A DNA stretch of 64,000 bases from an uncultured virus (IMG/VR IMGVR_UViG_3300028228_000217) (taxonomy: Duplodnaviria; Heunggongvirae; Uroviricota; Caudoviricetes), in IMG/VR virus record IMGVR_UViG_3300028228_000217; one strand, given 5' to 3'. The translations under genes were made by a program, and so were the position numbers. Under the pieces are notes generated by a model. That model saw only the letters and a list, made by a program, of their open reading frames with translations, did not search any database and had not been told where the DNA came from. Positions 23,812 to 56,353 of this stretch are shown piece by piece; within the stretch, counting starts at the first letter, position 1; each line of letters starts with the position of its first letter.

Positions 23812-24098
23812 TTGTACATTGCCCTCATACTAAAAATTAAATACATAAGTTCCATCAAAGCTCTAGGCCAATCTCTGTCTTTATAACCAAAGTAGACCCA
23901 CATTACACATGCAATAGCACTAAAGAGCCAACCAACCCATTGAGTAGAAACATTAGCACTTGATAGGATAAAAACAGAGGCCATTGCCAATGCAAATCCT
24001 AGCCAGCGTTCTGGTACTGCACCTTTAAAATATCGAAAGCCAAGCCATCTTCTATTTCTTGTATTGTAAACTGGTGATTTGCTATCATGTTTAGCCAT
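23796..24098 (-). CDS. Small membrane protein
   Basis: Three TM segments; true start uncertain because of overlap with upstream gene. Confidence 0.5.
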   Translation of the reverse strand: MAKHDSKSPVYNTRNRRWLGFRYFKGAVPERWLGFALAMASVFILSSANVSTQWVGWLFSAIACVMWVYFGYKDRDWPRALMELMYLIFSMRAMYNWLVI

Positions 24099-28106: not shown

Positions 28107-28732
28107 ATTGCAATTCTTCAAAATCATGTTTAAAATATTTATATACTACATTTTTCTGTTCTTGTGTGTAAGGTTTACTTTTATAAGTAGATTTTTTAAT
28201 ATGTTTTTTACTTATATCATAACCTTTGTTTTGTAAATAGGACCATACTGTATCATCTTCTATCTTAAATGTATTTACAGGTTTATTTGTTTGTCCTTTA
28301 TACCAAAATATTTTGATTTGAAAATGCATCCGGCACTTGAAAAGTGTTTATCCATCTATGTCTATCAAAATCATTTGTCAATAACTCAACCCAACCATCA
28401 AACTTTATTTTTTCTAAATTTTCAACTCTTTTAATTAATAGAGTTCTATCTCCACCTTTTAATGGTAAATCACCAAGCAATCTTTTCTTGTCCCATTCAA
28501 TTTGAAAATGATAAAAACTATAAAATCTATCATAAGGATTTCTGACTGTTACAAAATATTCATCACCAGTAATTCCTATTGAATTTAATCGTTTAATTGA
28601 TGAGTGAACACCGTTATGTGTTACCTCATTATCAATAAAATTTGAATTTTTAAGAGCCTCAGTAATACTAGAACCACCACATTTTGGAGGGTGTATAAAA
28701 ATTATATTGTGATTTTTTAATTTAAAGCTCAT
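28096..28732 (-). CDS. Sulfotransferase family 2 protein (frameshift near 28310)
   Basis: FIHPPKCGGSSI and VRNPYDRFYSFY PAPS motifs; second piece ends VYKYFKHDFEELQY. Confidence 0.8.
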
Positions 28733-29367
28733 TCATATACCGGCCAATCTGTTTGAAAAGTTACATAATTTAATTGTATGCCTCTTCGTTCTACTTTAAT
28801 ATTTTTACCTTTATTCATACCATGCCATTTGTTAGGTCCATGAAATATATATCCATAATTATTCCAAAATGGTACAGTTTTTATCAACTCTAAATCTTCG
28901 CTATATAAATCTGTGCCTAAGTTAATATTTTCGCCTGTTTTGTTTACATAAATTAAGCTTGATATTAGTTTCTCTGGTATATCACAATGAGGTTTCAACC
29001 AAAATCCTTCTACATCATTCAATACTTCTAATCTTACAAATGAACCTTCAAAACCATCTTCATTACCAACCATCTTAGCAATATGTTTCCTTACAGGTAC
29101 ACTTCGCAAATCATTAATAAGTTTTGTGAGTTCAGGATACTTTTGATAATTATCCTTTGTAATATATTCTCTTAGTTTATGGTTTTGTTTCTCAACACCT
29201 TTTACATAACCTGACCTTGTACCATCATGCAAAACTCCATCTCTAGTTACACTAGCGTTTCTAACCTCATCAATTTGTTCATCTGTTAAGATGTTTTCAA
29301 TGATGAAATGTTCCCAAGGATTGTCTTGTAATTTACTTTTTTGTAAACTTTCTAATATCTTTACCAT
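28729..29367 (-). CDS. 2OG-Fe(II) oxygenase
   Basis: PHCD..K, WHG, RR..QLNY. Confidence 0.75.
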   Translation of the reverse strand: MVKILESLQKSKLQDNPWEHFIIENILTDEQIDEVRNASVTRDGVLHDGTRSGYVKGVEKQNHKLREYITKDNYQKYPELTKLINDLRSVPVRKHIAKMVGNEDGFEGSFVRLEVLNDVEGFWLKPHCDIPEKLISSLIYVNKTGENINLGTDLYSEDLELIKTVPFWNNYGYIFHGPNKWHGMNKGKNIKVERRGIQLNYVTFQTDWPVYE

Positions 29368-30275
29368 ATATTTTCTCCATTCAAATGGCCATATGCTTGA
29401 CCCGATTTCATTTCGGTCTCTGTAAATTGGGCACACATTAAAGATTTTACCCAATCTTCTCTATCGCCAGCATATAAGGGGTCTTTAATTTGGTCTAGTT
29501 CATCTAAACCTAAACTTACAGGATAAGCAGGTGAGTGTTCACTACAAAAACTAGGTATGCCATTCATAACGGCATGTACAGCACACATAGAATGAAAAGA
29601 TACCATAGCATAACAATCTTTTAAATCTTCGCTTAATGGTTTATCTACTTTATCTCCCCAATCTACTTTACCTTTAAATTTTTCTCTAATCACAATAGGA
29701 TATGTTCTATCATACTTTGCAATCTTCTTAACAATGTCTTGTGTCCATTCATGTCTGTCTATACCATACCAAACGGCTGTATGATAACTAGGTGGTATAA
29801 TTAGAATGTGTTTACCATTATACTGCCATGGTTTTGGTGTTAATTCGTCTTTGCATTTTTGATTAAGTCTTTCCATAAGTTTATCGTATCTTCTATCGAC
29901 CTTATAAGACTTTTCTAAATAATTTTTTTGAGTATTGTTTTTACAGATACGATACCATCTATCGCCTGTGTCTGATTGTTGGTAGTCTTTCATAAAGAAG
30001 TATGGTTGGTCAAAGTAATACCAATCTCTCTTATCTGCAATGCAAACTTCTTGGACCTGTTTAGTTCCTCTTACAAGGCCTTGAAACACGACAGCCGTAT
30101 CTTCAGGTATTTCACCATTCCATGTTGGCCAGCTGAAATCTAAAAATCTATCAGCGCCTTTACCTGGCGATTTATTATTTTCTTTTGGATTAAAAACTTC
30201 ATGTTTATGTTTATCACAAAATGCCCTTACAAATGGTAATGAAGCTTTTTTAGTATCAAATAGATAAATTTTCAT
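29361..30275 (-). CDS. Capsular-polysaccharide-type glycosyltransferase-like protein
   Basis: WYYFDQPYF..YRI, ILIIPPS, IREK, SFHSMCAVHAVMNGIPSF. Confidence 0.6.
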   Translation of the reverse strand: MKIYLFDTKKASLPFVRAFCDKHKHEVFNPKENNKSPGKGADRFLDFSWPTWNGEIPEDTAVVFQGLVRGTKQVQEVCIADKRDWYYFDQPYFFMKDYQQSDTGDRWYRICKNNTQKNYLEKSYKVDRRYDKLMERLNQKCKDELTPKPWQYNGKHILIIPPSYHTAVWYGIDRHEWTQDIVKKIAKYDRTYPIVIREKFKGKVDWGDKVDKPLSEDLKDCYAMVSFHSMCAVHAVMNGIPSFCSEHSPAYPVSLGLDELDQIKDPLYAGDREDWVKSLMCAQFTETEMKSGQAYGHLNGENIW

Positions 30276-30864
30276 AACCAACCTTTTTAACATAATAACT
30301 ATCTACAATATCAGATAATGGATTACCTGTCTTATCTGTATCAAGTATTTGTTTCAAATTGTATTCTGGCAATTCTTTCACAAATGCCTCATACATCATA
30401 TCTTTGTCTGCATTACCTTTTCCAGTAGCACCTTTTTTAACAACACTAGGTACAACTGTGTGATAACCATACTCTTCTTCAAGTAAACGATATTTAAGAA
30501 TACCACAATTTTCAGCAATTTGAAATACACCTCGGCCTTTTGAACCAAAGGAGTATCCTTCAATGAAAATAATTGGTTGATTTTGTTTGTAATCTGATAA
30601 TAGGTCCATAACAAAATCTGATATATAAGTAAATCTTTCAATAGGGTCTTTCCATTCTTTATGTTCATAACCAGTTATATTTTCACCTTGTTTACCAATC
30701 CATTTCTTTTTACCTGTTAAGTAATGAAATGAAAAAGTACCACTTTTTATGTCGTCAATATGGACAGCTGGACTGGTTAAACTATAATCAATTCCAATCT
30801 TCGTCTTCCAAATCGTCTTCGTGTCGCTCTTCAATTTCTTCGTCATTTGATACCTCATGTCCAC
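30256..30864 (-). CDS. RuvC-like (RNase H fold) nuclease
   Basis: IGIDYS, FIEGYSF, VKK.ATGKGNADK, DIVDS. Confidence 0.75.
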   Translation of the reverse strand: MDMRYQMTKKLKSDTKTIWKTKIGIDYSLTSPAVHIDDIKSGTFSFHYLTGKKKWIGKQGENITGYEHKEWKDPIERFTYISDFVMDLLSDYKQNQPIIFIEGYSFGSKGRGVFQIAENCGILKYRLLEEEYGYHTVVPSVVKKGATGKGNADKDMMYEAFVKELPEYNLKQILDTDKTGNPLSDIVDSYYVKKVGYENLSI

Positions 30865-35052: not shown

Positions 35053-36051
35053 CTAACATTTCTTAAAGTAACTTAATTTGGTTAACGCTTCTAACTGAGC
35101 AAAGGTGTTGTTACTTATAATAGTTTGCACCTCAGCCTTACTCATTCCAGATAGAATCATATCATTAATGTCTTTATGTCGCATATCATCTGGCCACACG
35201 ACAAGGTTGTAATCTTTCTCTACCACATCATACATTCTTTTAACAATTTCTTTGTTTCTCGGTTCATTATCAAATATATATGTTATATTAACAGGTTCTA
35301 TTCGTAATGTCAAGTCTGCACCGGCAGCCGCTAAACAATTATTTAAAAACATACTATCTATTGGTCCTTCGACTATAGTAATATGGTCTTGTAAGTTAAC
35401 AGTATCTAAACCATAAACTTTTTGTTTATTCTCGTCTAACTTAATAGTTAGATATTTTGGTTGTTCTTTGCCGAATGCTCGGCCTTGAAAAGCGAATACT
35501 TTTCCGTCTTTGTCATAAAAAGGTATAATCAACCTAGGGTGTTCACCTTTCGTATGAGTAAAAGTATTTGGCTTCACTTTGTTAACAAAAGACATAAACT
35601 TGTCACTTAAATATAATTTAGAATAATACGATTCGGGTATCTTTCTATTTTTTACATATTGTAATACTGGATGGCCTTCTTTCAGTTCGCTGACCGATTG
35701 AAGACCGTCTAATATGTCTACTTCTTTAAAATCTGGTTTAAAATCTGTAAACTTCGGCTGAGGCGTGGAGGGTGCCGACCCTTTATATCTCTCTAATAGA
35801 TAATTTTCATATTTCTTGATGTCTATAAATTTTAGAAAGTTTGAAAAAGATTGTCCTTCGCCACAGTTGTGGCATTTGAAAAACATATCATTTTTCACTC
35901 TGTAGAAGTATGCTCTGGCCTTTGTCTTGTTCCTCTTAGAATCACCACAATGTGGACATCTAAAGTTAAAAAGATAGTCACCTTTCTTCTTAAACTGCGA
36001 CAATCTGGCAGACACTTCATTTATGTATTTTAAATCAATATAACTCGACAT
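35053..36051 (-). CDS. gp61: DNA primase gp61
   Basis: CPHCGD..CHNC zinc finger, VEGPIDS, DNEPRN, KDINDM. Confidence 0.95.
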   Translation of the reverse strand: MSSYIDLKYINEVSARLSQFKKKGDYLFNFRCPHCGDSKRNKTKARAYFYRVKNDMFFKCHNCGEGQSFSNFLKFIDIKKYENYLLERYKGSAPSTPQPKFTDFKPDFKEVDILDGLQSVSELKEGHPVLQYVKNRKIPESYYSKLYLSDKFMSFVNKVKPNTFTHTKGEHPRLIIPFYDKDGKVFAFQGRAFGKEQPKYLTIKLDENKQKVYGLDTVNLQDHITIVEGPIDSMFLNNCLAAAGADLTLRIEPVNITYIFDNEPRNKEIVKRMYDVVEKDYNLVVWPDDMRHKDINDMILSGMSKAEVQTIISNNTFAQLEALTKLSYFKKC

Positions 36052-36169: not shown

Positions 36170-36595
36170 CTACTTAATCATCTGTAGGATTTCGTGACCG
36201 TTTAAGGCTATAAACCACCCTATAACAACGGCACCGCCCATTATTAACCATCTGTACTTCTCTAGTATACCAACTCTCCCACCAATGTCAAGCTTCATTT
36301 GTCGTATCTCTAAAAGTAATTTCTTTTCTACTTGTTGGATTTCTTTTGATAATTCTGTATGAACTTTGCCTATCTCACCAGCTCGTTCTTTAAGTTTATC
36401 AAATATAATTTCATCAATCTGTTCTTGCCTAGCAATCTTCTCTTCGTGTACGGCTAACATCTGTTTTATAGATGTAGATACATCTGTCAACTTTTCAATA
36501 GCAGTATCTAATCTACTATTCAAGTTGTAGGCCTGCTCAATGTCTTTTTTGACGCCGGCTACTTCTACCTTTAAGTCGGTGATATTATCTGCCAT
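36170..36595 (-). CDS. Coiled-coil protein with C-terminal TM
   Basis: MLAVHEEKI..LEKYRW followed by TM. Confidence 0.65.
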   Translation of the reverse strand: MADNITDLKVEVAGVKKDIEQAYNLNSRLDTAIEKLTDVSTSIKQMLAVHEEKIARQEQIDEIIFDKLKERAGEIGKVHTELSKEIQQVEKKLLLEIRQMKLDIGGRVGILEKYRWLIMGGAVVIGWFIALNGHEILQMIK

Positions 36596-44461: not shown

Positions 44462-44650
44462 CTATTTCTTTATAATTCCTTTTTTGACTAAGTGTCTATG
44501 TAATGGTGTTCCCTTTACATCTTTACTTGCTTTGATACTACGAACACCCTTAGGTGGAGTATCTCCTAAACTGGCAATTGGGGCTAAATGTGATACGCCA
44601 CCTTGTCTTATGCCGGTGGTACCTATGTATTCTTTAAACTTCTTCATCAA
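44462..44650 (-). CDS. Small protein with MKKFKEY N-terminus
   Basis: 62 aa, capsid-targeting-like start. Confidence 0.5.
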   Translation of the reverse strand: MMKKFKEYIGTTGIRQGGVSHLAPIASLGDTPPKGVRSIKASKDVKGTPLHRHLVKKGIIKK

Positions 44651-45011
44651 ATTGTCCAGCGTGAGGTGTGTTGTCTTGTAAAGCTTTAATAAATTTATCG
44701 TGAAATGTTTGTTTTTTTTTTACAACTTTAATTTCTTCTTTTACAATGCCACTTCTCTCATCAATCTTGTCTTCTAGTTTGTTAAGAGTTTCATTAATAC
44801 CTCTTAATACTACATTGTTGTTGTCAGAGTTTTCTTTAACATTACCACCTATCTTTTTCATAATAACTCTTTTTAAAACATCTGTAACATCTTTTTTCTT
44901 TTTACCATTTGGATTCATATCAACACCACCATGAGCGACTGCGTTTGTTGGAGCGTCTTCATCCATTTTGTTAATGATTTCATCAATCATTTCTTTATAA
45001 TGCTTTGGCAT
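44634..45011 (-). CDS. Hypothetical protein
   Basis: EDAPTNAV motif typical of T4-like late small proteins. Confidence 0.6.
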   Translation of the reverse strand: MPKHYKEMIDEIINKMDEDAPTNAVAHGGVDMNPNGKKKKDVTDVLKRVIMKKIGGNVKENSDNNNVVLRGINETLNKLEDKIDERSGIVKEEIKVVKKKQTFHDKFIKALQDNTPHAGQFDEEV

Positions 45012-45468
45012 AATTATCCTCCGATACTAGTTCGCCATCTTTTTCATATATACTCATACCAAAACAAGTCATGTATGGTTTATCATCTATCTCTGGCATT
45101 TCTCTTACTTCATTTAACATCATATTATATAAATTTTCTTCTTTGAGATATGTTATTACAGCAGACTCAATTAAATCTTTATGCTCTGCCATAGATTTAT
45201 CTTCTTTTATCAATAAAGCCAAAGCAACTCCGAATGAGCCTAATCTACTACCTAATCCTACTTTCTGTAATATTCTTTTTAAATTGAATACAAATCTATG
45301 TAACATTGTATAGTGTTTTCGGTCACTACCTTTTACTTCTTTCATTTTTCTTAATGACTTACCATCTTCGTCAATAATACCTAAATCAAAAGCCTTAAAC
45401 TTTTCAAAAGGTGTTACCAACATCTTTACGACACGGTAAGTAATTATTAAATCAATTGCTCTACTCAT
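44995..45468 (-). CDS. Conserved T4-like hypothetical protein
   Basis: LVTPFEK..AF.LGIIDEDG, HRFVFNLKRI. Confidence 0.7.
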   Translation of the reverse strand: MSRAIDLIITYRVVKMLVTPFEKFKAFDLGIIDEDGKSLRKMKEVKGSDRKHYTMLHRFVFNLKRILQKVGLGSRLGSFGVALALLIKEDKSMAEHKDLIESAVITYLKEENLYNMMLNEVREMPEIDDKPYMTCFGMSIYEKDGELVSEDNYAKAL

Positions 45469-45827
45469 AGTTTCTTTAACATTTCCTCTATGTTCTTATC
45501 TGTTTCTACATTATTTAATTCATGTGGATATAGATACTCCAGATAATTCAAACATGTTTTTAATATTGACCAATACTTTTCATCAATCTTATATAGTAAC
45601 AATGTTATTGCCACTTCAGCACTAAAAACATTTTGTAATACAACAAGGTGGTTTAAAATTAATCGTATTTTAATTTCACCTGTTACATCATACTTACGAA
45701 ATAACCTTTTAAGATATTTAAATCGTTTAATGTCATCATAGAACTCTATCTCTGTTTCTAAAGTAGGGTTATCATAATTTTGTTGAGCAAACAACAACCA
45801 ATTATCTTTGGTTATCTCTTTGAACAT
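45465..45827 (-). CDS. Conserved T4-like hypothetical protein
   Basis: YDNP..EFYDDIKRFKYLKRL..RLILNH..NVF. Confidence 0.75.
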   Translation of the reverse strand: MFKEITKDNWLLFAQQNYDNPTLETEIEFYDDIKRFKYLKRLFRKYDVTGEIKIRLILNHLVVLQNVFSAEVAITLLLYKIDEKYWSILKTCLNYLEYLYPHELNNVETDKNIEEMLKKL

Positions 45828-45834
45828 ATAAAGT

Positions 45835-46329
45835 CTATACTAATTTAGCAAAGACTTTAGACGAACCGTTTTCTAGTGTTTCAAAACTAACTTCTAGTTT
45901 TAAACCACCTTCTTTTTTATGAGATATACCATCATCATTAATATCGGAACCGTCCACATCTTTACCAAATCTTCCTCCGAACTGACTTACTTCACCCATA
46001 ACCGAACCTTTAGTACCTTCCATTGCTGGCAGTTTTACTTCTAGTCCAATTGTTTTCAGTTTGTTTGTAAGTTGTTCAACTGCAGCTGTAGGATTTAAAT
46101 ATTCCTGCATTGCAATAGAGCCAACAAACGCATTTACCATTTCTAATACCTTAGGGTCATGTATATTGTGAGCACCAATGTTACCATCTTCTACAGAGTT
46201 AACTTCAGGTGTACCAACAGACATGTCTTCGTTAACATGTTGTTTAAAAGTTTTCATCTCTTCTCCTGTTAAGTCTTCTTCGAAATCCTCCAAAGACTTT
46301 TCTTTAATATGTTGTTTTAAAGTTTTCAT
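45835..46329 (-). CDS. Hypothetical protein with duplicated MKT(L/F)KQH leader
   Basis: MKTLKQHIKE..MKTFKQHVNE. Confidence 0.65.
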   Translation of the reverse strand: MKTLKQHIKEKSLEDFEEDLTGEEMKTFKQHVNEDMSVGTPEVNSVEDGNIGAHNIHDPKVLEMVNAFVGSIAMQEYLNPTAAVEQLTNKLKTIGLEVKLPAMEGTKGSVMGEVSQFGGRFGKDVDGSDINDDGISHKKEGGLKLEVSFETLENGSSKVFAKLV

Positions 46330-46517
46330 TTTTTCTTCTTTTCGTTTGACATTTCAATGAGTTTATTTACTTGTTGAATAGCACCATTGATTGCATTTAA
46401 GTTTGCTTTCATCTGTGCCATGTCATTTGTTATTTTATTAATTTGAGAATTCATTTTATCAAAATCTGCTTGTAAAAGTTGTTTCTCTTCGTTCAATTGT
46501 TCTATTGATATAGTCAT
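46326..46517 (-). CDS. Small coiled-coil protein
   Basis: 63 aa with heptad pattern. Confidence 0.55.
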   Translation of the reverse strand: MTISIEQLNEEKQLLQADFDKMNSQINKITNDMAQMKANLNAINGAIQQVNKLIEMSNEKKKK

Positions 46518-46534
46518 AATATTTCCTTAATTTA

Positions 46535-46996
46535 TTAAGCAACTGCAAAATCGTAGCCGCCGATTACATTCCAATTTGAATTCTTAAACATCAATGTTAC
46601 TGTTTCACCAGGTGCATTTAATGTAACTGTAGTTCCACCTCTTAAATTAGAAGGTGTGATTACAATATCATTAGAACCTGCTGTTGATACATTAATAATT
46701 GTTTTAACTTGTCCATTTGCACCGTCAGCTAATGTACAAGGCGCAGCTGCTGAAGTAGCATTTACCTCAGTTACCGGATTTGTAATTTCAATTGCTGTTG
46801 ATGTTGAACCATCACCTGTGATTGCTTGTGATGTTGAATTCAATCCAATCCATGTTGGAATGTTATTAAATACATCTTCAGCTGTGATTTTTTTATTGAT
46901 TGGTGTTCCACTTGGGTCATCTACTACATGAAACAAGTCAACGCTTGCTAAACCGTCACCAAGGTCGGTTAATTGCGTGATTTTTTTATCTGCCAT
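46535..46996 (-). CDS. Probable virion structural protein
   Basis: MADKKITQLT N-terminus, beta-rich, late promoter upstream. Confidence 0.65.
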   Translation of the reverse strand: MADKKITQLTDLGDGLASVDLFHVVDDPSGTPINKKITAEDVFNNIPTWIGLNSTSQAITGDGSTSTAIEITNPVTEVNATSAAAPCTLADGANGQVKTIINVSTAGSNDIVITPSNLRGGTTVTLNAPGETVTLMFKNSNWNVIGGYDFAVA

Positions 46997-47065
46997 TTTA
47001 TTCTCCTGTTAACCCCTTATGGGGAATTCTACTGTAGGTAAATTCCTACATCACTTTGTTTATAT

Positions 47066-47073
47066 TATTTATA
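47066..47073 (-). promoter_or_regulatory. T4 late promoter TATAAATA
   Basis: Exact motif, intergenic, just after hairpin TAGAGGCG..CGCCTCTA (47078-47107). Confidence 0.75.
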
Positions 47074-47116
47074 CAAGTAGAGGCGACCCATTTCTGAGCC
47101 GCCTCTAAAAGTGTTA

Positions 47117-47398
47117 CTAAGCAGCGTTAGTTAATACTGATAGAGTTTCGTGTTGAACTCTACCTGCTCTGCCTCCAGAACCAGTAGTTTTCATGTTCCA
47201 ACCTGCATGTGCAGCTCCGTCAGCGACTTCGCCGTCTGCATAGTTGAATAGACCAATAGTTTGGCCTGTAATAAAGTTATCTGCTGTTGCGTCTTCAAAC
47301 AAATTTGTTCTATTTGTTGAATTTGTTGCTAACCTAATAGCGGCAACAGCCCATAATGGTGCTCCAGCGGCGCTATCAGCTGATGTTTGCATTGACAT
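47117..47398 (-). CDS. Probable virion structural protein
   Basis: HAGW..GSGGRAGRVQHETL motif; late promoter at 47455..47462. Confidence 0.65.
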   Translation of the reverse strand: MSMQTSADSAAGAPLWAVAAIRLATNSTNRTNLFEDATADNFITGQTIGLFNYADGEVADGAAHAGWNMKTTGSGGRAGRVQHETLSVLTNAA

Positions 47399-47454
47399 AT
47401 TATTCTCTCCCTTTTAGTTAAATAATCGGTACTCAATTCTTAATATAGTACCAC

Positions 47455-47462
47455 TATTTATA
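47455..47462 (-). promoter_or_regulatory. T4 late promoter TATAAATA
   Basis: Exact motif in intergenic DNA. Confidence 0.75.
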
Positions 47463-47472
47463 AGGAAAAGGA

Positions 47473-47958
47473 CTAGAAGCCTAGTTTTTTCAACTCGGCG
47501 ATAGTTTGAGAGGCTGTTTTGAATGTGATACCTGTACCACCTGCTCTATTAAATTCAGCAGTATTCTTTTCATAATCATCAATCAGTATAGAACCAGGCG
47601 TTGCATAGTTCTTTTTCTGACTTCTCATTACAAGATTGATTTTGTTACTAGGTATTCCAGTATTTTTCATAGCCCATTTCTTCTTGCCTGGAATGCAATT
47701 AGGGTCAAATGCATGTTCTACATATGCACTTAGAATATGTGGTTGATATTTCTTAACGAAAGAAAATAGTTTCTTTCCTTCATTCAACCATGGTCCATCA
47801 GACCAAAACTTTTTGTTTGCAATGATTGGATCCCATCTCTCTTTTCTTCCTAGTTTAGTCCATTGATTAATTGTAAGACCTGTGGTCTGTTCAATGTTCT
47901 TCACAAAGTCAAAGAGTACGCCATCCATATCGAGGTATATTCTTGGTAAATTTTTCAT
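47473..47958 (-). CDS. HAD-family 5'(3')-deoxyribonucleotidase-like phosphatase
   Basis: IYLDMDGVLFDF, K..W, ILIDD; preceded by sigma70-like TTGCCT..TATAAT. Confidence 0.85.
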   Translation of the reverse strand: MKNLPRIYLDMDGVLFDFVKNIEQTTGLTINQWTKLGRKERWDPIIANKKFWSDGPWLNEGKKLFSFVKKYQPHILSAYVEHAFDPNCIPGKKKWAMKNTGIPSNKINLVMRSQKKNYATPGSILIDDYEKNTAEFNRAGGTGITFKTASQTIAELKKLGF

Positions 47959-48041
47959 AGTGTATCCTTTTCTTTATTATGCCTTATTATAACACAATGG
48001 TACATATAAGGCAAGTAAAAAAGGTCACCTTTCTGTCGCAG

Positions 48042-48757
48042 CTAGTATTTTATTTGAGGTTTTGTATCTATTTCTGTAGGTTTTGAACCTGTCATAGTAG
48101 TTTTTCTTTTCAAGTCTTTCTCATCTTCTTCTTTATTTTTAGGTGGCACTACAGATTCAAGACCTTCTTTTTTATGGTCTTTGTCTTTCATAATAGTTCC
48201 ATCAGGCATTTTATGAGAACCTTTTGGTACATCTTTTTCTTCGTAAGACGCCGCTAATTTTTTAGGTTTAGTCTTAGGTTTCTCATCATCTTTATCGTAA
48301 GCGTCTTCTTCGTTTTTTGGATTATAGCCAGCTACTTGTAATGAATTTTTCCAATGTTCTATACTATCAACATCTTTACTAGAAATTGTATGCATTTTAC
48401 CATTTTTATCAAAAGCTTTCATAGTATATACACCAGATACTAAACTAACTTTATCTATAACATATACTTTACCTTTGACAGTAATATAATTATTAACTTT
48501 TAAAAGGTCTTTATTTTTTTGGCTTATTGTACCATTTGGTTCAGTTATTCCCTCATTTACTTCTTCGTCTTTAGCCTTGTGCATTTTGTCCAGTTTAGTA
48601 AAGAAAGCTGTCTTTTCTTTAGGTGTCATTGAACCAATACCTCTGCCTGTTTTTTCTAATTCTTTTTAAATTTATCTTGATAACCAGACTCTTGTTGAGT
48701 TGCTTTTGCTACTACTTCTTCTAGTGAACCTGGTTTGTGTGTTAAATAATCTGACAT
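48042..48757 (-). CDS. Charged hypothetical protein (frameshift near 48665)
   Basis: Starts MSDYLTHKPGSLEE at 48757; contains HKMPDGTIMK motif. Confidence 0.55.
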
Positions 48758-48758
48758 T

Positions 48759-50813
48759 TTAGTTTCCTTTTACCTTAGCAGCTAAGTCTTTATCTGCACC
48801 GCCCCATGTTCCAGAGGATTTTGTTATGAATGAATTTACTCTAGCGAAAGCCCATTGTTGCTGTGTAGTACCTGGTCGGTGTCCACCTCTCCATGCAGCC
48901 ATGCCTCTATCGTAAACTTGTTTTAGAATACCATATGGCATTCCAGATTTTTCAGCTTTGTTTTTTAGACCTTCAATTTGTTCAAATATCTTTTTAGCTG
49001 GGTGGTCTTCGTTCTTCATTACCTTTTCTAAATCTTTTGCTTGACCAGCATGTGCCTGACTAGCACCTTTTAATTTAGTGACAATCTTTTTAACAGTAGG
49101 TGTATCTTTACTATCTAAGTCTTCGTTAGTTCTTTTAAGAACATTCTGAACATCTGGATGTAATGATAAACCTTTTGCAATCTTTTCAATTGCTGCTACA
49201 GCACCTGAATAATTACCACCTTTGTATCGTTTATCGTTTGCAACACCATATGCCATTTTAATTTGTTGTGATGTAAACTTTGAAGTGTCTTCTTTAACTT
49301 CTTCTTTTTCTTTTGCCACCTTATCTCTAAGATGTTTGTATGCAATACCAACTTGTAGTAATGGTTCACCTGTTTCAGGATTTACCATTTTCTTGGTATC
49401 TTTTGCTACAGCTTTTGTTTTATCTGTTTCTGATTTTTGTTTTAACTGTGCAATCTCAGCGTCTTTCTTTTGTAAGTCACCTTTTAATTTGTCAGAGTCA
49501 TCTGTCTTTTCTTCTTTAGGTTCCTTTTTAGGCTCTTCTTCTTTAGCTTCTGAGATTTCTTCTTTTACACAATTAGGTACTTGTTTACCACCCTTGTCTT
49601 TCATACCAACTTGTTTGTAACCTACCCAACAAGCTTCTGTAATAGGGTTGTAGTTGTCCTCGTCAGCGCTTTCATCTATTGTATAATTCTCTGCTCTTAC
49701 TGTTGCACCATAAAAGTTTTTAAGGTCAGTAGCATACTTATTAAGGTCTGCACCGTTACCATCTATCTTTAAAGCCTTTTGATTACCAGTAATAGTAAAA
49801 CCTTGTTTTGCTAAATCGGTTGAAGCCTTTGACATATCAGCATGTGAATTAAAAGATACTGTCATCTTTTTGAATTCATGTATCTGTTCTTCACCAAGAA
49901 TACTCTTAACGGTGTTAACATCTAGTTTCATTAACTTAGCAATCTCAGCTGCTGTCTTACCATCTTTTTGCATTTGGTCTATGTCAGACATTCTGCCTTC
50001 AGCAAGTTGTTCTTTAACTGCAACTACTGTAGCTGCCATATCGCCTTGAGCAAATGATACGGAACCATCTTTTCTTTTGTATAGATAGAAAGGACTTGTT
50101 CCTGGTTTATTTTCAATTTCTAATTTGACTTTATCTGTATTATACTTTGCACTTCTAGTCTTGTTCTTAACTACAAATTTCTTAACAGTAGTACCAGACA
50201 TCATTGAATTATAAGTGATAGTCATTGTATCGCCTTTTTTCAAACTATCAAATTTCTTTCCGTCTATTTTACCCTCTGTAATTTCTATTTCATTCTGTGT
50301 AGCTTCGTCTAGTATTTCTACTTCTTCTAATCTTAATTTTACACCAGCTGGTCTAGGTATATTCTTTTGAATCATTTTGGTCATTGCCATAACTGATAAG
50401 AAAGGAATATCTGCCTTGAAAATATCTACAAGACCACTATCTGGAATATTTTTAAACATTTGTGATAGTTTGTTAGCATTTGCAATTGAAATCTTTTTAC
50501 CTCTCATCACTTCGTATTCTTTTTTAAGTCTGTCGATTTGAGAAGCGCTAAAGTTTTCTTCTAATGTTTCAATTAAATCTGAAATAACATTAATTTTTGC
50601 ATGTTTAACTGCTACTTGTGTAGGAACATCTAACTTAGCAATCATAGATTTAATACCTGGTGTTATATCTTTTTTGCTTTTAGTTGCCCACACCCTTTTT
50701 AAATTTGATAATTGTGTGTCTGTTAAGGTTCCACTTAACCCAAAGTCGTTAGCTTCTGCATTTAATTTGACCTGCTCATAAGCTTCGGCCATTGTTTGTC
50801 TATAGTTTGTCAT
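48759..50813 (-). CDS. Large modular protein with C-terminal DUF5824-like domain; candidate head internal polyprotein
   Basis: Modules separated by Glu-ending linkers; EACWVGYKQVG..VPNCV; LKQVYDRG.AAW..HRPG..QQWAFARVNSF. Confidence 0.7.
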   Translation of the reverse strand: MTNYRQTMAEAYEQVKLNAEANDFGLSGTLTDTQLSNLKRVWATKSKKDITPGIKSMIAKLDVPTQVAVKHAKINVISDLIETLEENFSASQIDRLKKEYEVMRGKKISIANANKLSQMFKNIPDSGLVDIFKADIPFLSVMAMTKMIQKNIPRPAGVKLRLEEVEILDEATQNEIEITEGKIDGKKFDSLKKGDTMTITYNSMMSGTTVKKFVVKNKTRSAKYNTDKVKLEIENKPGTSPFYLYKRKDGSVSFAQGDMAATVVAVKEQLAEGRMSDIDQMQKDGKTAAEIAKLMKLDVNTVKSILGEEQIHEFKKMTVSFNSHADMSKASTDLAKQGFTITGNQKALKIDGNGADLNKYATDLKNFYGATVRAENYTIDESADEDNYNPITEACWVGYKQVGMKDKGGKQVPNCVKEEISEAKEEEPKKEPKEEKTDDSDKLKGDLQKKDAEIAQLKQKSETDKTKAVAKDTKKMVNPETGEPLLQVGIAYKHLRDKVAKEKEEVKEDTSKFTSQQIKMAYGVANDKRYKGGNYSGAVAAIEKIAKGLSLHPDVQNVLKRTNEDLDSKDTPTVKKIVTKLKGASQAHAGQAKDLEKVMKNEDHPAKKIFEQIEGLKNKAEKSGMPYGILKQVYDRGMAAWRGGHRPGTTQQQWAFARVNSFITKSSGTWGGADKDLAAKVKGN

Positions 50814-51160
50814 TAGTTGTTTACCTTTGCTCCCGTTCTCCATTGATAACAGCTCCAATATCTGGCCATTGTTTTAGGTCCTGGATTATCACATTTATGC
50901 CTCGCTCTAAAAGATTTTCTTCGAGCTGGGTCATCTCTCTTAATACTTAATCCAGTTGTATCACCAAATGAAACTTTAATAACTTTACCAGCTTCATTCT
51001 TTACATATACATAAAACTTTTTACTACCGCCTCGTATAGGGTCGTTTAATTTTACTTTTTTACCTTGATATTCTGACTCATAAATGCCTTCAGCTTCATG
51101 CTCGAAGATACATTCTTCGCAAGATTCATCAATGTTTTCGTACTCTTTAAAAGATTTCAT
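50813..51160 (-). CDS. DUF6321-like basic protein
   Basis: KKFYVYVKN..KVSFGD..RRKSFRARH.C..ARYWSC; starts MKSFKEY. Confidence 0.7.
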   Translation of the reverse strand: MKSFKEYENIDESCEECIFEHEAEGIYESEYQGKKVKLNDPIRGGSKKFYVYVKNEAGKVIKVSFGDTTGLSIKRDDPARRKSFRARHKCDNPGPKTMARYWSCYQWRTGAKVNN

Positions 51161-53637
51161 TATAGTTTCTCTATCATTTTGGCAACCACTTCTTGTAGTT
51201 TTGCCTTCCATTCTTCTTTATATCTTTCTCTATATTTATTCATTGTAGACTCTGTAGATGCCCATTCTTTAATATCTTTTTCGGATGGTGTTTCTTTCTC
51301 TCTATCTAAGAAACCTTTTACTTTTTAATAGGGTTTACCTGGCCTGGTGTCATGTCTACCGTGTGTTTTGTGTACTCTGGTGTACCTATTTCATGTACTT
51401 CGCCATACATTTGTTTGTATTTCTTAGTATGAATACTTGTTTTAGTCTTGGCATCCTTGTCACCTGGAGCTGCTTTGTTATCATTCTTTGTAGTATCTTT
51501 GTTCTTAAAATGGTCAGCTCTTTTATTTTTTACATCTTTTGATAACTGTTTGTAATACTTTTTAGGTTGTGTACCATCTTTTTTCTTCACATCTTTATCT
51601 TGTGGCTGTGCGTCTAAGTCTTCTTTTATCTCAGATACAGCTTCAAATCCATAATCAACATTTAAGTTATGTTCTCTCATCTCAGCCTCTCTATTTGTAG
51701 TTGATACAGGAATACAATCCCATATCCATGCTTTATGCAAATTATTTTTAGTATCTTCTACAACAATAAAATTAGTACCTTTTCTTACAACTTTACCTTG
51801 TAGGTCTTCTTTGATGTAATCTACTGTGTCACCAATATTAAAAATTTGGTCTCTGATATAGAGGTCTCTAATCTGTTGTTGTTCAAATTGTTCTAAACTA
51901 ACAACTGGATTTAAATTTCTCATGTACATATAACTAGCAGCTAAGTTCATACCTTTTCTAACTTGTTTCATAATACCGTCTGCGTCAACACCTCTTGGTA
52001 AACCTTTTTCAAAATTTTTTATATCACCTTTGGCAGCTGCAGCTCTCATCTTACTTGCACTCATACCTGAGGCTCCCTCTGCGTCAGGATCCCTTTCGCC
52101 AGCAGACACCACTTTAATATTATCAAAGTTATACATACCATGTCTTGATGATACACCATTATACTTTGTCAATATATTTTCAAATTCTCTAACTCTATCC
52201 GAACCAGCAACCATAGTTACATCTGAGTAACCTTTCTTGTATAACATTGTAGCAATATCAAGTACCATATTGGTCTGGTTGATTTCAATGTTTCTTGCAT
52301 GAGAAGGAAACATCTTCTTCATAATAGATAACTTATCTTTAGGAGATAATGGATTACTTTTAGGGTCTTCACTTCTACTTAAAAAGATTTTGTAATCATT
52401 TGTGGGTAATGATTTAACTTTGTTAATAAGTTTTTCGTGGCCAATTGTAGGTGGATTAAATCTACCAAATGCAAATGCAATAGATTTATCTGTAGCTTCT
52501 TCTATGTATTCTTCGTGTACCATTTTTACTAATTTTTTAGCATCAATATCAATAAATGTATCACTAACAGCAGCAGCGTAATAACCTATGTCGTGTCTTA
52601 ATGGTAGTCCTTCAGACGCTCTTTCTTTTTCTTTCTATCAATAACATCTTGTAAAACTTTAGCTGCATATTCATATCTCTTTTGAGTTGTTGCCATCATT
52701 TTAATTTTAGTAACTAAACTTTTAAACCAATCGCTTTTTTTATTTTTATCTTGTCTAATGTAATTGCCTCTTTTAAACTATCAATCTCTGCGTCTGTTAC
52801 TTCACCATCATCTAAAATCTTTTTACATTTCTTGTAGAATTTTAGATAGTGATATTTTTCTAACATCTTATAAATTACATTTTTAGGTAATCTGTTTTTA
52901 ATTCCATATTTTCTTATCTCGTCTGGTGACATATCTGTATCAAATGCAGCTCGTCTTTCTGCGTCAACACCATCACCAATTTTGATAATGTCTTCGATAC
53001 TATCTTCAATCTCTTCTAACTTATTATTAATTAATTCTTGTAAGTTTAAAATGTCGTCTGGTTGTAATTCTTTTAGTTCATCATAGTCAATGATATCTCT
53101 TTTTAGTTCGCCCTTGACAACATCTATTTCTTGTACTTTTCTTTCAAAGTCTTTTATATATATTGATTTGTCAAAGGTAAAATCGTCTGGTCTTTTAATA
53201 AACTTATTGTTTTCGATATCAAATACTGCGTCTGCCTTTTTCTCTTGGTCATTATAAGTTTTAATGTCTGTAATAAAATAAAAATTAATAGGGTGTTGTG
53301 TACCAGGTATATTCTTACCTTGAATACTATCAGGAGAAGTGGTCGACAAATACTTTTTACTAAGTCTAGTTCTTTCTTCTTCTCTCTTATCTTGTGGTAC
53401 TTTAAACAATACATTTAAATCTAAATCTGCGTCAGCTCTATATCTTTTTGTAAGAATAGAACCAATAAGACCAACCTTAACAACAGGATATTCTTCTTCA
53501 AACATATCTATTTGTTTATCAATTAATGCTTTAACACTAGGTTTGATTTTAGGGTTGTTAGTATCAGCGTCATCAAACACAGCCTTAGCATATGTTTTTC
53601 TAGGTATATCTATGATACTTTCTTTAAATGTTTTCAT
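51160..53637 (-). CDS. Probable fused pol-beta nucleotidyltransferase + HIGH-type (cytidyltransferase-like) protein, split by three frameshifts
   Basis: GSILTKRYRADADLDL in 52714..53670; FGRFNPPTIGH, VAGSDR, MSASKMR in 51318..52523; linker readable across two A-run shifts; tail continues to 51160. Confidence 0.7.
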
Positions 53638-54326
53638 CTTCTTTTTAATTTTCTCTCTGTCGCCATCCACCTTTTTGCTGTGTATGACTTAATCGTATTA
53701 CTCAATAATCTTCTTACACTCTTACCAACTTTATTCATAACAACTGTTGTAAGTTCTTTATCATCTTTACTGTTGTCAATGATTACCATACTAGACATAC
53801 CAAATAGATTTTGAAATTTACCTATATTACTTTGTACAGCTTTCCAAGAATTTACAGTAACATATTCTGGTACACTTCTTTCTCTTTTTGAATTTCTTTC
53901 TAATGCAACATCTAAACTTGTGTTAACAAATACCATATAACAATCATAACCTAATTGTCTTAACTCACTCACTTGTTGATTAATCTTATCGTAATCTCTA
54001 CCTGTGCCATCAATAACCAAACCTAATCTACCTTTGATATATAAGTCCATTTGATTACCAGTCATAGCCTTTGCTCTATCTCTAATAATATCTCTAGCTT
54101 CTGCCTCATCTTCAGGCATTTTTAGTGATAGACTATTTTTCTTTAATGCTTTTTCAAATGCATTATCTGAGTTGACAGTTTTTAAACCTGTGCCACCAAA
54201 TGCATTACGAGTTACAAATGTTTTACCTGAGCCTGGTCCACCTGCAAGGAAAAATGCCTTGAAGATGTTAGGGTCATATAACCCCTCTTGTAAGTCTTGA
54301 AATCTTATGTCGTCAAATTTTTTCAT
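53634..54326 (-). CDS. P-loop kinase (zeta-toxin/PNK-like)
   Basis: LAGGPGSGKT, VNSD, VIDGTG, ALERN..RER. Confidence 0.8.
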   Translation of the reverse strand: MKKFDDIRFQDLQEGLYDPNIFKAFFLAGGPGSGKTFVTRNAFGGTGLKTVNSDNAFEKALKKNSLSLKMPEDEAEARDIIRDRAKAMTGNQMDLYIKGRLGLVIDGTGRDYDKINQQVSELRQLGYDCYMVFVNTSLDVALERNSKRERSVPEYVTVNSWKAVQSNIGKFQNLFGMSSMVIIDNSKDDKELTTVVMNKVGKSVRRLLSNTIKSYTAKRWMATERKLKRR

Positions 54327-54898
54327 TGTACTTTCTTAATTATTTCTTTTGATATTGCTTCAGGTGTACTACCCTCTGCTTTAATATTTATGACTTCATC
54401 ACCGTAATAGTCTAATAGAGGTCTTGTTTCTTTTTCATATGTTGCCAATCTCTTTTTAATAATCTCTGGTGTGTCATCTTCTCTACCTCTGGCAGTTAAT
54501 CTCTTAATAATTTCTTCTTCGGACACCACAAGGTTTACAACATAATCATATTCAATACCTTGTTCTTCTATCGCCTCAGCTTGTTCAACACTTCTAGGAA
54601 AACCATCAAAGATATAACCTTTTTGTGCGTCTGGTTTTTCTAATCTTTGTTTTACAATCTTAATTGTTAAGGGTGTTGGTGCAAACTTACCTTGGTCTAA
54701 TAATTTTTTAACAGTTCTACCATCTTCGGTGTTTTGTTTTGAGATTGCTCTTAACATTTCACCTGTGTAGATATGTGGAATACCTAACTCTTTAGTAATA
54801 ATTTCTGAGTATGTTGACTTACCTGAACCAGGTCCACCTATCATAATGATTTTAGGTTTATTGATTGCTTCAAAGAAGTATTGTTTAAATGACTTCAT
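54323..54898 (-). CDS. adk: Adenylate kinase (short LID)
   Basis: GGPGSGKST, HIYTGEMLR, DGFPR, RGREDD. Confidence 0.9.
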   Translation of the reverse strand: MKSFKQYFFEAINKPKIIMIGGPGSGKSTYSEIITKELGIPHIYTGEMLRAISKQNTEDGRTVKKLLDQGKFAPTPLTIKIVKQRLEKPDAQKGYIFDGFPRSVEQAEAIEEQGIEYDYVVNLVVSEEEIIKRLTARGREDDTPEIIKKRLATYEKETRPLLDYYGDEVINIKAEGSTPEAISKEIIKKVQ

Positions 54899-55056
54899 TT
54901 TTTATAACCTGTACCTTTTTCTCTACTGCCCCATCTTTTTTGCCAAGCATAATTTGTAAACTTTACACCTAAACTTTCTATAATACTATAATAAAAATCT
55001 AGTATTCTTATAAGTTTCTCTTTAATTAAATCAATTGTATCTGGTAATGTTCTCAT
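54895..55056 (-). CDS. Small hypothetical protein (not in ORF track)
   Basis: MRTLPDTIDLIKEKLIR..YAWQKRWG, 53 aa filling the gap with overlapping start/stop. Confidence 0.5.
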   Translation of the reverse strand: MRTLPDTIDLIKEKLIRILDFYYSIIESLGVKFTNYAWQKRWGSREKGTGYKK

Positions 55057-56261
55057 TAATTCCAACCTTTCGGCATTGTAAAATTTTGCCTACTAAATTC
55101 TAATCTGTCAACCAGTTTAATTGCACCTGCAACCTTATCAACTGCAACATAACCCTCTGGTGCTGTCACTCTGTAACCTGTTGATGTTCTAAGAAAGTTA
55201 CCAATACTTTGTACTTGGCTCATTTTTTGTAGTAAGGTTTGTTTAGCTAGACCTATTGTAATGTGTGAGGCAATTGCAAAGTATAGTGCTTGTTTATTTC
55301 TATCTATAAACCTTAGACCATCTTTCTTTGCCTTAATAAATTTATCTTTACCTTTTGGTGTTTTTCTACTATCAATCTCATTCTGTAATATACTTTCAAA
55401 GTAATCTCTGAATTGTTTTTGCATAACTGAAACTTTATCCATACTACTATTTGAATTTCTAATGTAATGATTGAAGTATGTTTTTAATCTGTAACCAACA
55501 GATAGGTCATCTGATATATTTTTACTCATCAAGTTTAAAATAGGAGCAGCCTTTCTAAGAGAACCTTCGGCCATTCTTATCTGTGCGTCAAATTTAGATA
55601 ACTCAGATTTATCAAACATAACTTTTGTTTCTTTATAACCTGCACTTGCTAAGAATACATTTCTATTAGATGAACCTTGAACTGTACCAAAACTAGCAGA
55701 TAAACTATCCATCTTTTTACCATTGTATTGAGTGTGAAATACAATACCCATTTTGGCTTTTGAAATTTTGTTGGCAAGGTCACTACCCTTAGGTACTGCA
55801 TATGTAATAGTGTTTGGTGTAAATGATACCATTTTCTCACCATCTATAGTTATATCTTTCAAGTCATTTGTAAATAACAAATCGCCTTGTAGAATACCTT
55901 TGATGTTAAGTCTGGATAATTGTGATAAACATACAGTTAGTTTCTGTGCTACAACACCGCCGTGGTTATTGTTTATATCTCTAACTGTGTAATTGATTTT
56001 TGGAGTTACATTGAATACAGATTTTGTACCAACGAAGAATTTACCATTTTCTGGATTAATACCACAGATAATAGCTGGTGCTCCGTCCCATTTGACGGTA
56101 ATATTGGCTGTGTCACCTGTACCTGCCAACATATTTCTAACTGACTTTAGAAAGTTGACTGCATTGTCACCACCTATCATACCTCTATTGATGATATCAT
56201 CTTCAAGATGTTCTAAGTGTGTGTTCTTGTCCTGTGTAAGGAAACCTTTAAAATTAAACAT
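55056..56261 (-). CDS. DUF6267-like protein with ATP-dependent ligase-type motifs
   Basis: HLEHLED, TVKWDG (motif I KxDG), QGDL, EGYV, IKLVDR.EFS..NF. Confidence 0.75.
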   Translation of the reverse strand: MFNFKGFLTQDKNTHLEHLEDDIINRGMIGGDNAVNFLKSVRNMLAGTGDTANITVKWDGAPAIICGINPENGKFFVGTKSVFNVTPKINYTVRDINNNHGGVVAQKLTVCLSQLSRLNIKGILQGDLLFTNDLKDITIDGEKMVSFTPNTITYAVPKGSDLANKISKAKMGIVFHTQYNGKKMDSLSASFGTVQGSSNRNVFLASAGYKETKVMFDKSELSKFDAQIRMAEGSLRKAAPILNLMSKNISDDLSVGYRLKTYFNHYIRNSNSSMDKVSVMQKQFRDYFESILQNEIDSRKTPKGKDKFIKAKKDGLRFIDRNKQALYFAIASHITIGLAKQTLLQKMSQVQSIGNFLRTSTGYRVTAPEGYVAVDKVAGAIKLVDRLEFSRQNFTMPKGWN

Positions 56262-56345
56262 TTTTCTCTCTCATTTTTATCCATTATACTATAAAATATG
56301 AGGTTTGGCAAGCCCTCTCAATCAGTCCATTAACAAATATATTAC

Positions 56346-56353
56346 TATTTATA
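56346..56353 (-). promoter_or_regulatory. T4 late promoter TATAAATA heading the 56-48 kb cluster
   Basis: Exact motif about 85 nt upstream of the 56261 ATG; a sigma70-like TTGCCA..TATAAT lies at about 56283-56311. Confidence 0.7.

Follow-up and report, generated by a model that had tools for sequence, protein, structure and literature searches.

Leaders resembling the T4 capsid targeting sequence on enzymes and small proteins of an uncultured marine T4-like phage

The 64-kb stretch of DNA analysed here, hereafter the window, is IMG/VR virus record IMGVR_UViG_3300028228_000217, and its source is an uncultured marine T4-like myophage. Between positions 44,462 and 56,353, it holds a tightly packed gene cluster, located between the gp41 helicase gene and the genes for primase and ribonucleotide reductase (RNR), in which many of the proteins open with a similar short leader. 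We propose from their N-termini that at least seven of the cluster proteins carry a leader functionally equivalent to the T4 capsid targeting sequence (CTS), and we think it likely that these leaders are real capsid-targeting propeptides on enzyme cargo. The phage probably ships a tagged adenylate kinase (Adk), a second kinase, a nucleotidyltransferase (NTase) and several small proteins into its next host with the DNA. A loading signal had been put forward in an earlier reading of the letters and open reading frames (ORFs) alone, here called the sequence-only reading, and on that point it turns out to be largely right.

The N-termini quoted in that reading are all present on the minus strand at the start coordinates it gave: MKKFKEY at 44647, MKTLKQHIKE at 46329 followed by MKTFKQHVNE at 46257, MKSFKEYENIDE at 51160, MKTFKES at 53637, MKKFDD..LQE at 54326, MKSFKQYFFE at 54898, and MFNFKGFL at 56261. 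Written as the regular expression MK[STK][FLY][KQD][EQD] and applied in a six-frame scan, the strict motif has 8 matches in 64 kb, all of them on the minus strand, which is the coding strand, and all within 44647-54898, as against a mean of 0.06 and a maximum of 1 in 200 codon shuffles. Seven of the 8 open ORFs of 61 to 307 amino acids (aa), namely those of a 61-aa basic protein, a 164-aa protein (two copies), a phrog_7595 protein, a Pol-beta-type NTase, a P-loop kinase and Adk; the eighth (44962) is a 15-aa stretch that is out of frame. The replication genes of the window have no match to the strict motif. The proteins behind the leaders are mutually unrelated, with no cross matches in an all-against-all blastp, and the fact that synonymous codons differ among the leaders indicates that conservation acts on the protein. 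A hydrophobic-x-Glu end is found as FFE in Adk, as IKE and VNE in the 164-aa protein (where the two leader copies are 24 residues apart in one ORF), as IDE in the phrog_7595 protein and as LQE in the kinase. For the genes at 51160 and 53637, the longest ORFs of the window extend upstream past the leader methionine, but relatives have a stop a few codons 5' of it, leaving this Met as the earliest start open to the two genes. ATGA stop/start overlaps couple the genes for Adk, the kinase and the NTase in series, and a TAATG overlap couples the phrog_7595 gene to that of a 684-aa protein.

That the leaders closely resemble the T4 CTS, as the sequence-only reading held, is borne out by the T4 record, where ipII and ipIII begin MKTYQEFIAE and ipI begins MKTFKEF, and by pattern matching. 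According to a review on how the T4 head assembles, in the part available, the N-terminal 10 residues of internal protein (IP) III are enough for packaging, residues 4 and 7 matter for targeting, residues 8 and 10 matter for processing, and Asp at position 10 stops cleavage but not targeting. A loose four-residue motif, M[KR]x[FLY], was dropped because it is unspecific, matching NT5C in 10/22, UvsX, and a 368-aa protein in 8/15, and for this reason a 10-residue pattern and a position-specific scoring matrix (PSSM) were adopted. The former, pattern A, consists of a start codon, K, any residue, F/Y/L, two residues, F/Y/H, a hydrophobic residue, any residue, and E. Its matches within T4 bases 50-100 kb are limited to ipII and ipIII, and those in the window are Adk and the two leaders of the 164-aa protein. 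A related DNA pattern, run over the complete T4 genome, returns ipII, ipIII and gene 61.1 alone, with 0 control matches, and has one match in Pelagibacter phage HTVC008M, antisense to a gene. The PSSM was trained on 10 leaders from outside the clade (three from T4, four from S-CREM2, three from HTVC008M). On the 658 ATGs of the window, it ranks cluster gene starts 1, 2, 3, 5, 6, 7 and 9, with the NTase first and the DUF6267 protein (MFNFKGFLTQ) second, and with these two, the phrog_7595 protein and the 61-aa protein all within the top 7. Rank 4 is a 156-aa ORF starting at 7593, far from the cluster.

That ORF (7123-7593, minus strand) belongs to no known family, starts MKMYKDKLSDFF and is encoded between thymidylate synthase and gp59. 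As to T4 itself, gene 61.1 (54 aa, NC_000866 18966-19130) is annotated as hypothetical, is just 5' of primase gene 61, and begins MKTFKEFIKE; the second leader region of the 164-aa protein is identical to gp61.1 in 9 of the first 15 residues. Judging by this N-terminus, the gene 61.1 product may be an unrecognised head-internal protein, and its helicase-primase position may be comparable to that of the cluster.

The distribution of the leaders in related DNA was read from 80 IMG/VR loci (777 kb) having DUF6267 at 63-100% identity. These contain 63 strict matches, 0 of them on the non-coding strand, and 62 of the 63 open ORFs of at least 40 aa. By family, there are 14 for Adk, 12 for the kinase, 11 for the 164-aa protein, 10 for phrog_7595, 11 for the NTase or its fusion to a cytidylyltransferase (CTase), 2 for the 61-aa protein, and 2 unassigned, so the scan of relatives that the sequence-only reading had suggested returns the same gene families on the coding strand only. 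It had also asked whether the motif is equally frequent on replication genes. The replication genes of the window have none, and even the loose motif occurs in 0/50 gp41 orthologues, and in 4/30 UvsX orthologues, which read MKDFLKEIIKETG, unlike the leader.

Leader length and sequence vary across orthologues, and the hydrophobic-x-Glu abuts the start of the conserved domain. In the kinase, it directly precedes G[LIV]YD in 45/45 unique orthologue contexts (..LxE|G[LIV]YD). In the NTase, the junction is ..xE|[SA][IV]IDxPR, and hydrophobic-x-E is seen in 44/48 unique contexts. For Adk, a leader of the form M[KR]x[FLY]..hydrophobic-x-E is kept in 10/15 unique orthologue N-terminal contexts. Orthologues of the 164-aa protein for which the N-terminus is available have MKx[FLY] in 11/11, and the tandem form recurs in one other locus (L020). 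The phrog_7595 orthologues begin MKTFKEF/YENID or MPKTFKQFEEYD, and the orthologue context of the 61-aa protein (two ORFs, one unique string) begins MKSFKEFIGTTG. The expectation that the leaders are add-on extensions holds for Adk, where family models and phage Adk homologues align only from about residue 16; tblastn matches to the window Adk begin at residues 9-17, and a few relatives' Adk begin at the P-loop without a leader. In HTVC008M, the tag is partly on other cluster members, for example a cytidylyltransferase starting MKTLKELL. In some of the related loci (L004-L083), the NTase leader directly continues the reading frame of a PAP2-type phosphatase-like sequence (..AGWHYPSDH..), and hence the enzyme set beside the leader genes differs between lineages.

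Evidence from virions comes from cyanophages. The available part of Sullivan et al. 2010 (PMC3037559) has a 'cytidylyltransferase' detected in purified S-SM1 virions with 25 counts, and the available protein FASTA of that paper has it beginning MKKFSAFLNE. In the same material, the long cytidylyltransferases of other cyanophages begin like that of S-SM1, the short forms (P-HM1, P-HM2, Syn1) are untagged, and that of S-PM2 is untagged and not detected in virions. T4-GC15, a 'cyanophage core' virion protein in the available part of the same paper, has the leader in 0/16 genomes and was set aside as irrelevant to the leader question. For S-CREM2, 52 virion-detected proteins are given in the accessible portion of PMC10665884; its record has 221 annotated features including at least two tRNAs, and was taken as 219 coding sequences. 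Pattern A has 4 matches in the whole S-CREM2 genome, with a shuffle mean of 0.125, and these are the starts of SAM hydrolase gp6, gp13, the APH-like kinase gp14 and the cytidylyltransferase gp154. All 4 are virion-detected (hypergeometric probability ~0.003 on the 52/219 background), and neighbouring genes absent from the virion list carry no motif. Sequence coverage of the enzyme peptides from mature S-CREM2 virions is 11-27% in that same portion, so the cyanophage enzymes are not fully degraded. In S-SCSM1, the DNA form of the pattern has two matches, one of them the NMNAT gene (MKSFLQFLKE), which is annotated as a virion protein. Motif and virion detection co-occur in three cyanophages. The window CTase is 32% identical to S-CREM2 gp154 over 261 residues and 40% identical to S-SCSM1 ORF91 over 277 residues.

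The S-CREM2 (PMC10665884) and S-SCSM1 papers, in the parts available, suggest that the virion carries enzymes of this kind; none of the terms N-terminal, targeting, leader or propeptide occurs in the S-CREM2 text. A full-text search, with subscription journals outside it, found no paper linking cyanophage or marine leaders to the T4 signal. The other S-SCSM1 match, SSCSM1_30 (106 aa; MK867354 44215-44535), begins MKTFKQFMSE, adjoins terL and is located between two virion proteins; it is a candidate internal protein missed by mass spectrometry. In the virion-detected 'Cas9-like' gp12 of S-CREM2, a leader-like ..RFASFMAEA.. sits about 17 residues in from the annotated N-terminus, which means either a misannotated start or a signal that still works behind an N-terminal extension.

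On timing, the sequence-only reading had placed the cluster under late promoters. The late-promoter-like motif TATAAATA is found where it said, at 56346-56353 and 47066-47073, and occurs no more than 160 nucleotides (nt) upstream of the DUF6267 start in 59/75 sequences (74 related loci and the window). The cluster is not purely late, however, as a sigma-70-like promoter stands next to the first of these motifs, and the form TTGnnn-N16-18-TAnnnT is found upstream of DUF6267 in 72/75 of the same sequences with a peak at -50. Because this promoter stands beside the late motif, expression of the cluster is probably both early and late, and the promoter sequences suggest that its genes may be made early too and act in the cytoplasm. 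Over the region as a whole, promoter-like sites are no more numerous than in shuffles (57 vs 64). The window has 10 copies of TATAAATA, no more than chance would give (12.6 for the two strands together), so only the strand and position of these motifs are informative; read from the coordinates, all 10 are on the coding strand and each is upstream of a gene start. A literature search for Syn9 transcriptome data giving the timing of the homologous genes found nothing usable.

In the mechanism that we propose, the leader, by its aromatic residue or Leu at position 4, its aromatic residue at position 7 and its hydrophobic-x-Glu end, would bind the scaffolding core during prohead assembly. A T4-type prohead protease would then cut after the leader Glu, and the mature proteins would remain packaged alongside the DNA until the next infection, when they would exit together with it. 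Core binding, cleavage and ejection of the tagged proteins are steps that we infer, and delivery into the host with action before transcription is extrapolated from T4 only. The cargo would consist of Adk, the P-loop kinase, the Pol-beta NTase (in relatives, fused to an NMNAT-like protein), small proteins of basic or acidic character, and possibly the ligase-like DUF6267 protein. We guess that in the host these enzymes would serve nucleotide/NAD and RNA-end housekeeping during the first minutes after infection begins.

Several points weigh against this account. The window contains neither head genes nor a prohead protease; the T4-type prohead protease family PF03420 is matched in 2/5 records searched, HTVC008M (3e-34) and an 86.7-kb contig with related locus L017 (4e-37), the other three being fragments, and a separate search of the 13.5-kb fragment G001 gave no match. 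The window CTase is without a tag and is split from the leader-bearing NTase. The DUF6267 leader departs from the T4 rule in its Phe2 and Asp11, residues 1-12 of the 61-aa protein contain no hydrophobic-x-E, and the kinase scores low on the 10-mer PSSM, only its first 4-6 residues fitting the leader. The conserved Glu could belong to the folded domains instead of to a cleavage site. The conserved sigma-70-like promoter points to early cytoplasmic expression, where a head-loading tag is useless. Among the cyanophages, the Syn9 cytidylyltransferase is tagged yet not detected in the virion proteome as far as PMC3037559 was available, SSCSM1_30 is not annotated as a virion protein, and the available parts of the S-CREM2 (PMC10665884) and S-SCSM1 papers say that soluble abundant proteins could co-purify. 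No virion proteome was found for the window phage or for any pelagimyophage.

One rival explanation, by expression or descent, we consider unlikely. It holds that the shared N-termini are kept as an A/U-rich initiation region or a RegA-like repressor site, or come from a duplicated ancestor, with the enzymes cytoplasmic and their virion homologues contaminants. The genome is AT-rich, with A/T-rich leader codons right after the ATG, and RegA is encoded by HTVC008M and S-CREM2, but synonymous positions differ among the leaders, and S-CREM2 and S-SCSM1 have the same peptide pattern in other codons. The conserved sigma-70-like promoter, suggesting early expression, fits this explanation, as do the worry over contamination that the proteome authors raise themselves (in what is available of PMC10665884 and the S-SCSM1 paper) and the Syn9 enzyme that is tagged but not detected in virions, again in the available source. 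It has more trouble with a leader whose length varies while the hydrophobic-x-E junction stays, and with the 4/4 S-CREM2 pattern matches that are virion-detected against a background of 52/~219. It also does not account well for replication genes: those of the window are without the strict motif, gp41 orthologues are without even the loose one (0/50), and the 4/30 UvsX orthologues that have the latter read MKDFLKEIIKETG, which is not leader-like. Duplication is further opposed by the lack of any blastp relationship between the proteins behind the leaders.

A different explanation accepts that the leaders take proteins into the prohead, but as core or scaffold accessories or to be degraded by the protease, the fate of most T4 core proteins, with no active enzyme delivered; we regard this as improbable. 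According to the available parts of reviews, the same protease in T4 destroys the scaffold and trims core proteins, and several cluster members here are small and charged. The tagged full-size enzymes, however, keep their catalytic motifs, the P-loop in Adk and GS..DxD in the NTase, and the NMNAT-like protein keeps its TIGH motif. The 11-27% coverage of cyanophage enzyme peptides (available part of PMC10665884) is from mature virions, and T4 IPs and foreign CTS fusions are reported as delivered into cells in the accessible text of a review. Finally, the N-terminal similarity could be chance arising from common residues (Met-Lys-Thr/Ser-Phe-Lys) in an AT-rich genome, where MK-initial proteins are common, and the loose M[KR]x[FLY] does match unrelated N-termini (NT5C 10/22, 368-aa protein 8/15). 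We give this almost no weight in view of the 8 observed strict matches vs 0.06 in shuffles, the 63/63 matches in relatives that are on the coding strand, and the fact that the pattern, run on T4 and S-CREM2, returns nothing but internal-protein genes, gene 61.1 and virion proteins. The reading that we prefer remains that of capsid-targeting propeptides on enzyme cargo.

The coordinates of the cluster genes and of their associated features are collected in Table 1. Adk aligns with PF00406 at E = 2e-45 (155.2 bits vs a cut-off of 26.8) and with TIGR01351 at 168.8 bits vs a cut-off of 168 from residue 16 onward, and it has GGPGSGKS at residues 21-28; on these family matches, its identity is a confident call. 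The second kinase matches PF13671 (3e-13), PF06414 (2e-11) and phrog_12810 (1e-48), and phmmer against the Protein Data Bank (PDB) finds only a weak zeta-toxin match (E = 0.003); by its family matches it is a generic AAA_33/zeta-toxin-like P-loop kinase. The NTase scores 24.8 bits vs a cut-off of 21 to PF01909, has the G[SG]..DxD motif as GSILTKRYRADADLDL, and has viral NTP_transf_2 clusters as its ESM Atlas neighbours. The 684-aa protein has a weaker leader-like N-terminus, MTNYRQTMAEA, and HTVC008M gp132 begins MTRYTKTMAEA.

Table 1. Genes of the leader cluster and associated features, in order of decreasing coordinate
Feature	Coordinates	Strand	Remarks
TATAAATA late-promoter-like motif	56346..56353	-	upstream of DUF6267
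Sigma-70-like promoter TTGCCA-17-TATAAT	56283..56311	-	11/12; between late motif and DUF6267
DUF6267 protein, 401 aa	55056..56261	-	PF19782 E 9e-118; atypical leader MFNFKGFLTQD at 56229-56261
Adenylate kinase, 191 aa	54323..54898	-	leader MKSFKQYFFE (54869-54898), 5-aa linker before P-loop strand
P-loop kinase, 230 aa, AAA_33/zeta-toxin-like	53634..54326	-	14-aa leader MKKFDDIRFQDLQE (54285-54326)
Pol-beta-type NTase, 307 aa	52714..53637	-	short leader MKTFKE (53620-53637) before conserved SIIDIPR
~190-nt insert between NTase and CTase	52524..52713	-	33-aa ORF and startless stretch in frame with downstream gene
Cytidylyltransferase/NMNAT-like protein, 401 aa	51318..52523	-	starts MVHEEYIEEA, no canonical leader
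phrog_7595 protein, 115 aa	50813..51160	-	leader MKSFKEYENIDE (51125-51160)
684-aa protein, C-terminal DUF5824	48759..50813	-	PF19141 2e-15; likely start ATG 50813 (TAATG overlap)
195-aa Lys/Glu-rich protein	48042..48629	-	no leader
5'(3')-deoxyribonucleotidase-like HAD protein	47473..47958	-	phrog_2643 7e-29; no leader, DxD at residues 10-12
93-aa gene	47117..47398	-	flanked by two TATAAATA motifs (47455-47462, 47066-47073)
153-aa protein	46535..46996	-	starts MADKKITQLTD, no leader; counterpart of HTVC008M gp136
164-aa acidic protein	45835..46329	-	tandem leaders MKTLKQHIKE (46300-46329), MKTFKQHVNE (46228-46257)
DUF7207	45465..45827	-	cluster member without strict leader
157-aa protein	44995..45468	-	cluster member without strict leader
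125-aa protein	44634..45011	-	MPKHYKEMIDE; cluster member without strict leader
61-aa basic protein (pI 10.7)	44462..44647	-	MKKFKEY; resembles internal protein

The claim that the nucleotidyltransferases are tagged holds for the Pol-beta NTase (MKTFKE) and fails for the cytidylyltransferase (MVHEEY). The CTase matches phrog_395 at 1e-70 and PF01467 at a borderline 22.3 bits vs a cut-off of 21, and has the (H/T)xGH motif as FGRFNPPTIGHEK; as an NMNAT specifically, it is at 17.8 bits in TIGR01526, for which the cut-off of 341 is not reached. In 48/48 related loci holding both motifs, the NTase and CTase are one ORF behind one leader. The startless stretch of the insert that separates them in the window is conserved (..EGLPLRHDIGYYAAAVSDTF..), and there is an A-rich run where the two frames meet. 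An intron was considered for this insert and rejected, with no Rfam match and an RNA fold z-score of +1.1. With phmmer against PDB, there is no match for DUF6267, the CTase or the NTase.

The protein that the sequence-only reading called ligase-like contains DUF6267. In favour of that label is an invariant KxDG: in 21 sequences, M1, F2, F4, K5, G6 and F7 are invariant, as is K57-W-D-G60, with the motif I lysine. The fold matches are weak. In the full-length model, residues 1-16 are disordered, with a predicted local distance difference test (pLDDT) score of about 22, and fold matches are mostly to helical bundles. With a domain-only model (pLDDT 70), the best VIA match is the RNA editing ligase 1xdn (Z = 6.1, root mean square deviation 3.5, 112 aligned), and the next are tRNA ligases at Z = 5.0, below the tool's trust level; the best Foldseek matches are archaeal DNA ligases at E = 0.04-0.14 and probability 0.4-0.6, also below the trust level. 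Since no ligase fold match reaches that level, the name 'ligase-like' is reasonable, though unproven, and we treat the modelled domain as a ligase-like nucleotidyltransferase candidate. The homologue search gave only near-identical marine sequences among the 120 listed, too shallow to align. Cyanophage versions of DUF6267 are without the N-terminal extension, and the protein (T4-GC71) is not in the S-SM1 virion table.

The window as a whole carries T4-type replication and virion genes. All long ORFs are on the minus strand, and GC is ~33%. PHROG and Pfam scans find the gp43 polymerase C-terminus, UvsX, gp41 helicase, gp61 primase and NrdA/B, together with gp55 late sigma factor, gp33, gp59, gp32, gp2 and a baseplate hub. 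The nearest named relative is HTVC008M, with DUF6267 50.6% identical and the gene order pol-UvsX-gp41-[cluster]-primase-NrdA in common with the window. A megablast of 13 kb against a phage collection gave no match, and the nearest record, G001, has its content all within the window already. Two overlapping ORFs (97 and 165 aa; 1246-1966, minus strand) match positions 5-94 and 94-232 of the phrog_150 baseplate hub, which looks like a frameshifted or split gene. A 141-aa ORF (36170-36595, minus strand) and the primase (35053-36051, minus strand) match the N- and C-terminal parts of phrog_451, and these halves appear to be a single protein in some phages. Between the late sigma factor and RNR genes, at 23116-30293 on the minus strand, there are glycosyltransferase-like, methyltransferase-like (three paralogues, phrog_8156) and sulfotransferase-like genes, a run that may serve the modification of surfaces or of DNA.

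In the sea, T4-like phages that infect cyanobacteria and SAR11 rank with the most abundant viruses, and the T4 packaging tag is already in use as an engineering tool. A sequence rule for capsid-borne proteins would explain why 'metabolic' enzymes recur in cyanophage virion proteomes, would let virion cargo be read straight from metagenomes, and would identify proteins acting at the very start of infection. Such a rule suggests that the T4 packaging tag is ancient and portable across very distant hosts, and it is directly testable with existing phage isolates and existing mass-spectrometry data. A wider view, which we offer tentatively and would not yet rely on, is that the T4 head-loading signal is a plug-in address kept across cyanomyophages and SAR11-type myophages, which dominate among the myophages of the ocean. 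A leader of 6-14 residues would then put enzymes (Adk, the P-loop kinase, the NTase/NMNAT-like module, perhaps an RNA-ligase-like protein) into an injected payload that would restore ATP, NAD or damaged RNA ends before phage expression, for example against abortive-infection defences that deplete nucleotides or NAD.

As compared with known systems, the T4 CTS and internal-protein system is already known, and the new part is the enzyme cargo in marine T4-like phages. The leaders of T4 IPI, IPII and IPIII are of about the same length and near the same sequence as those in the window, with aromatics at 4 and 7 and a hydrophobic-x-Glu end; in both cases, unrelated proteins follow a conserved leader, and the genes are outside the head-gene block. 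T4, by contrast, loads small basic proteins, including an anti-restriction inhibitor, whereas the window has recognisable enzymes whose genes form one translationally coupled operon, and whose packaging and cleavage are predicted. T4 Alt, an ADP-ribosyltransferase, is the closer parallel in being an enzyme loaded into the head, trimmed by gp21 and delivered with the DNA, according to the available text of a review; there it is processed at both ends, and the window enzymes are of other families. The virion NMNAT-like proteins or cytidylyltransferases and kinases of cyanophages S-SM1, S-SCSM1, S-CBWM1 and S-CREM2 include the homologous cytidylyltransferase family, but the homologous CTase of the window has lost its tag, and the papers, in the text searched, report detection and do not describe the leader as a loading mechanism or Adk as cargo. 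In the giant phages phiKZ, 201phi2-1 and SPN3US, as the accessible part of a review describes, a gp21-like protease of the T4 type cleaves numerous unrelated proteins inside the head, ejection and inner-body proteins, on the C-terminal side of Glu, but the propeptides there are longer and the motifs are others.

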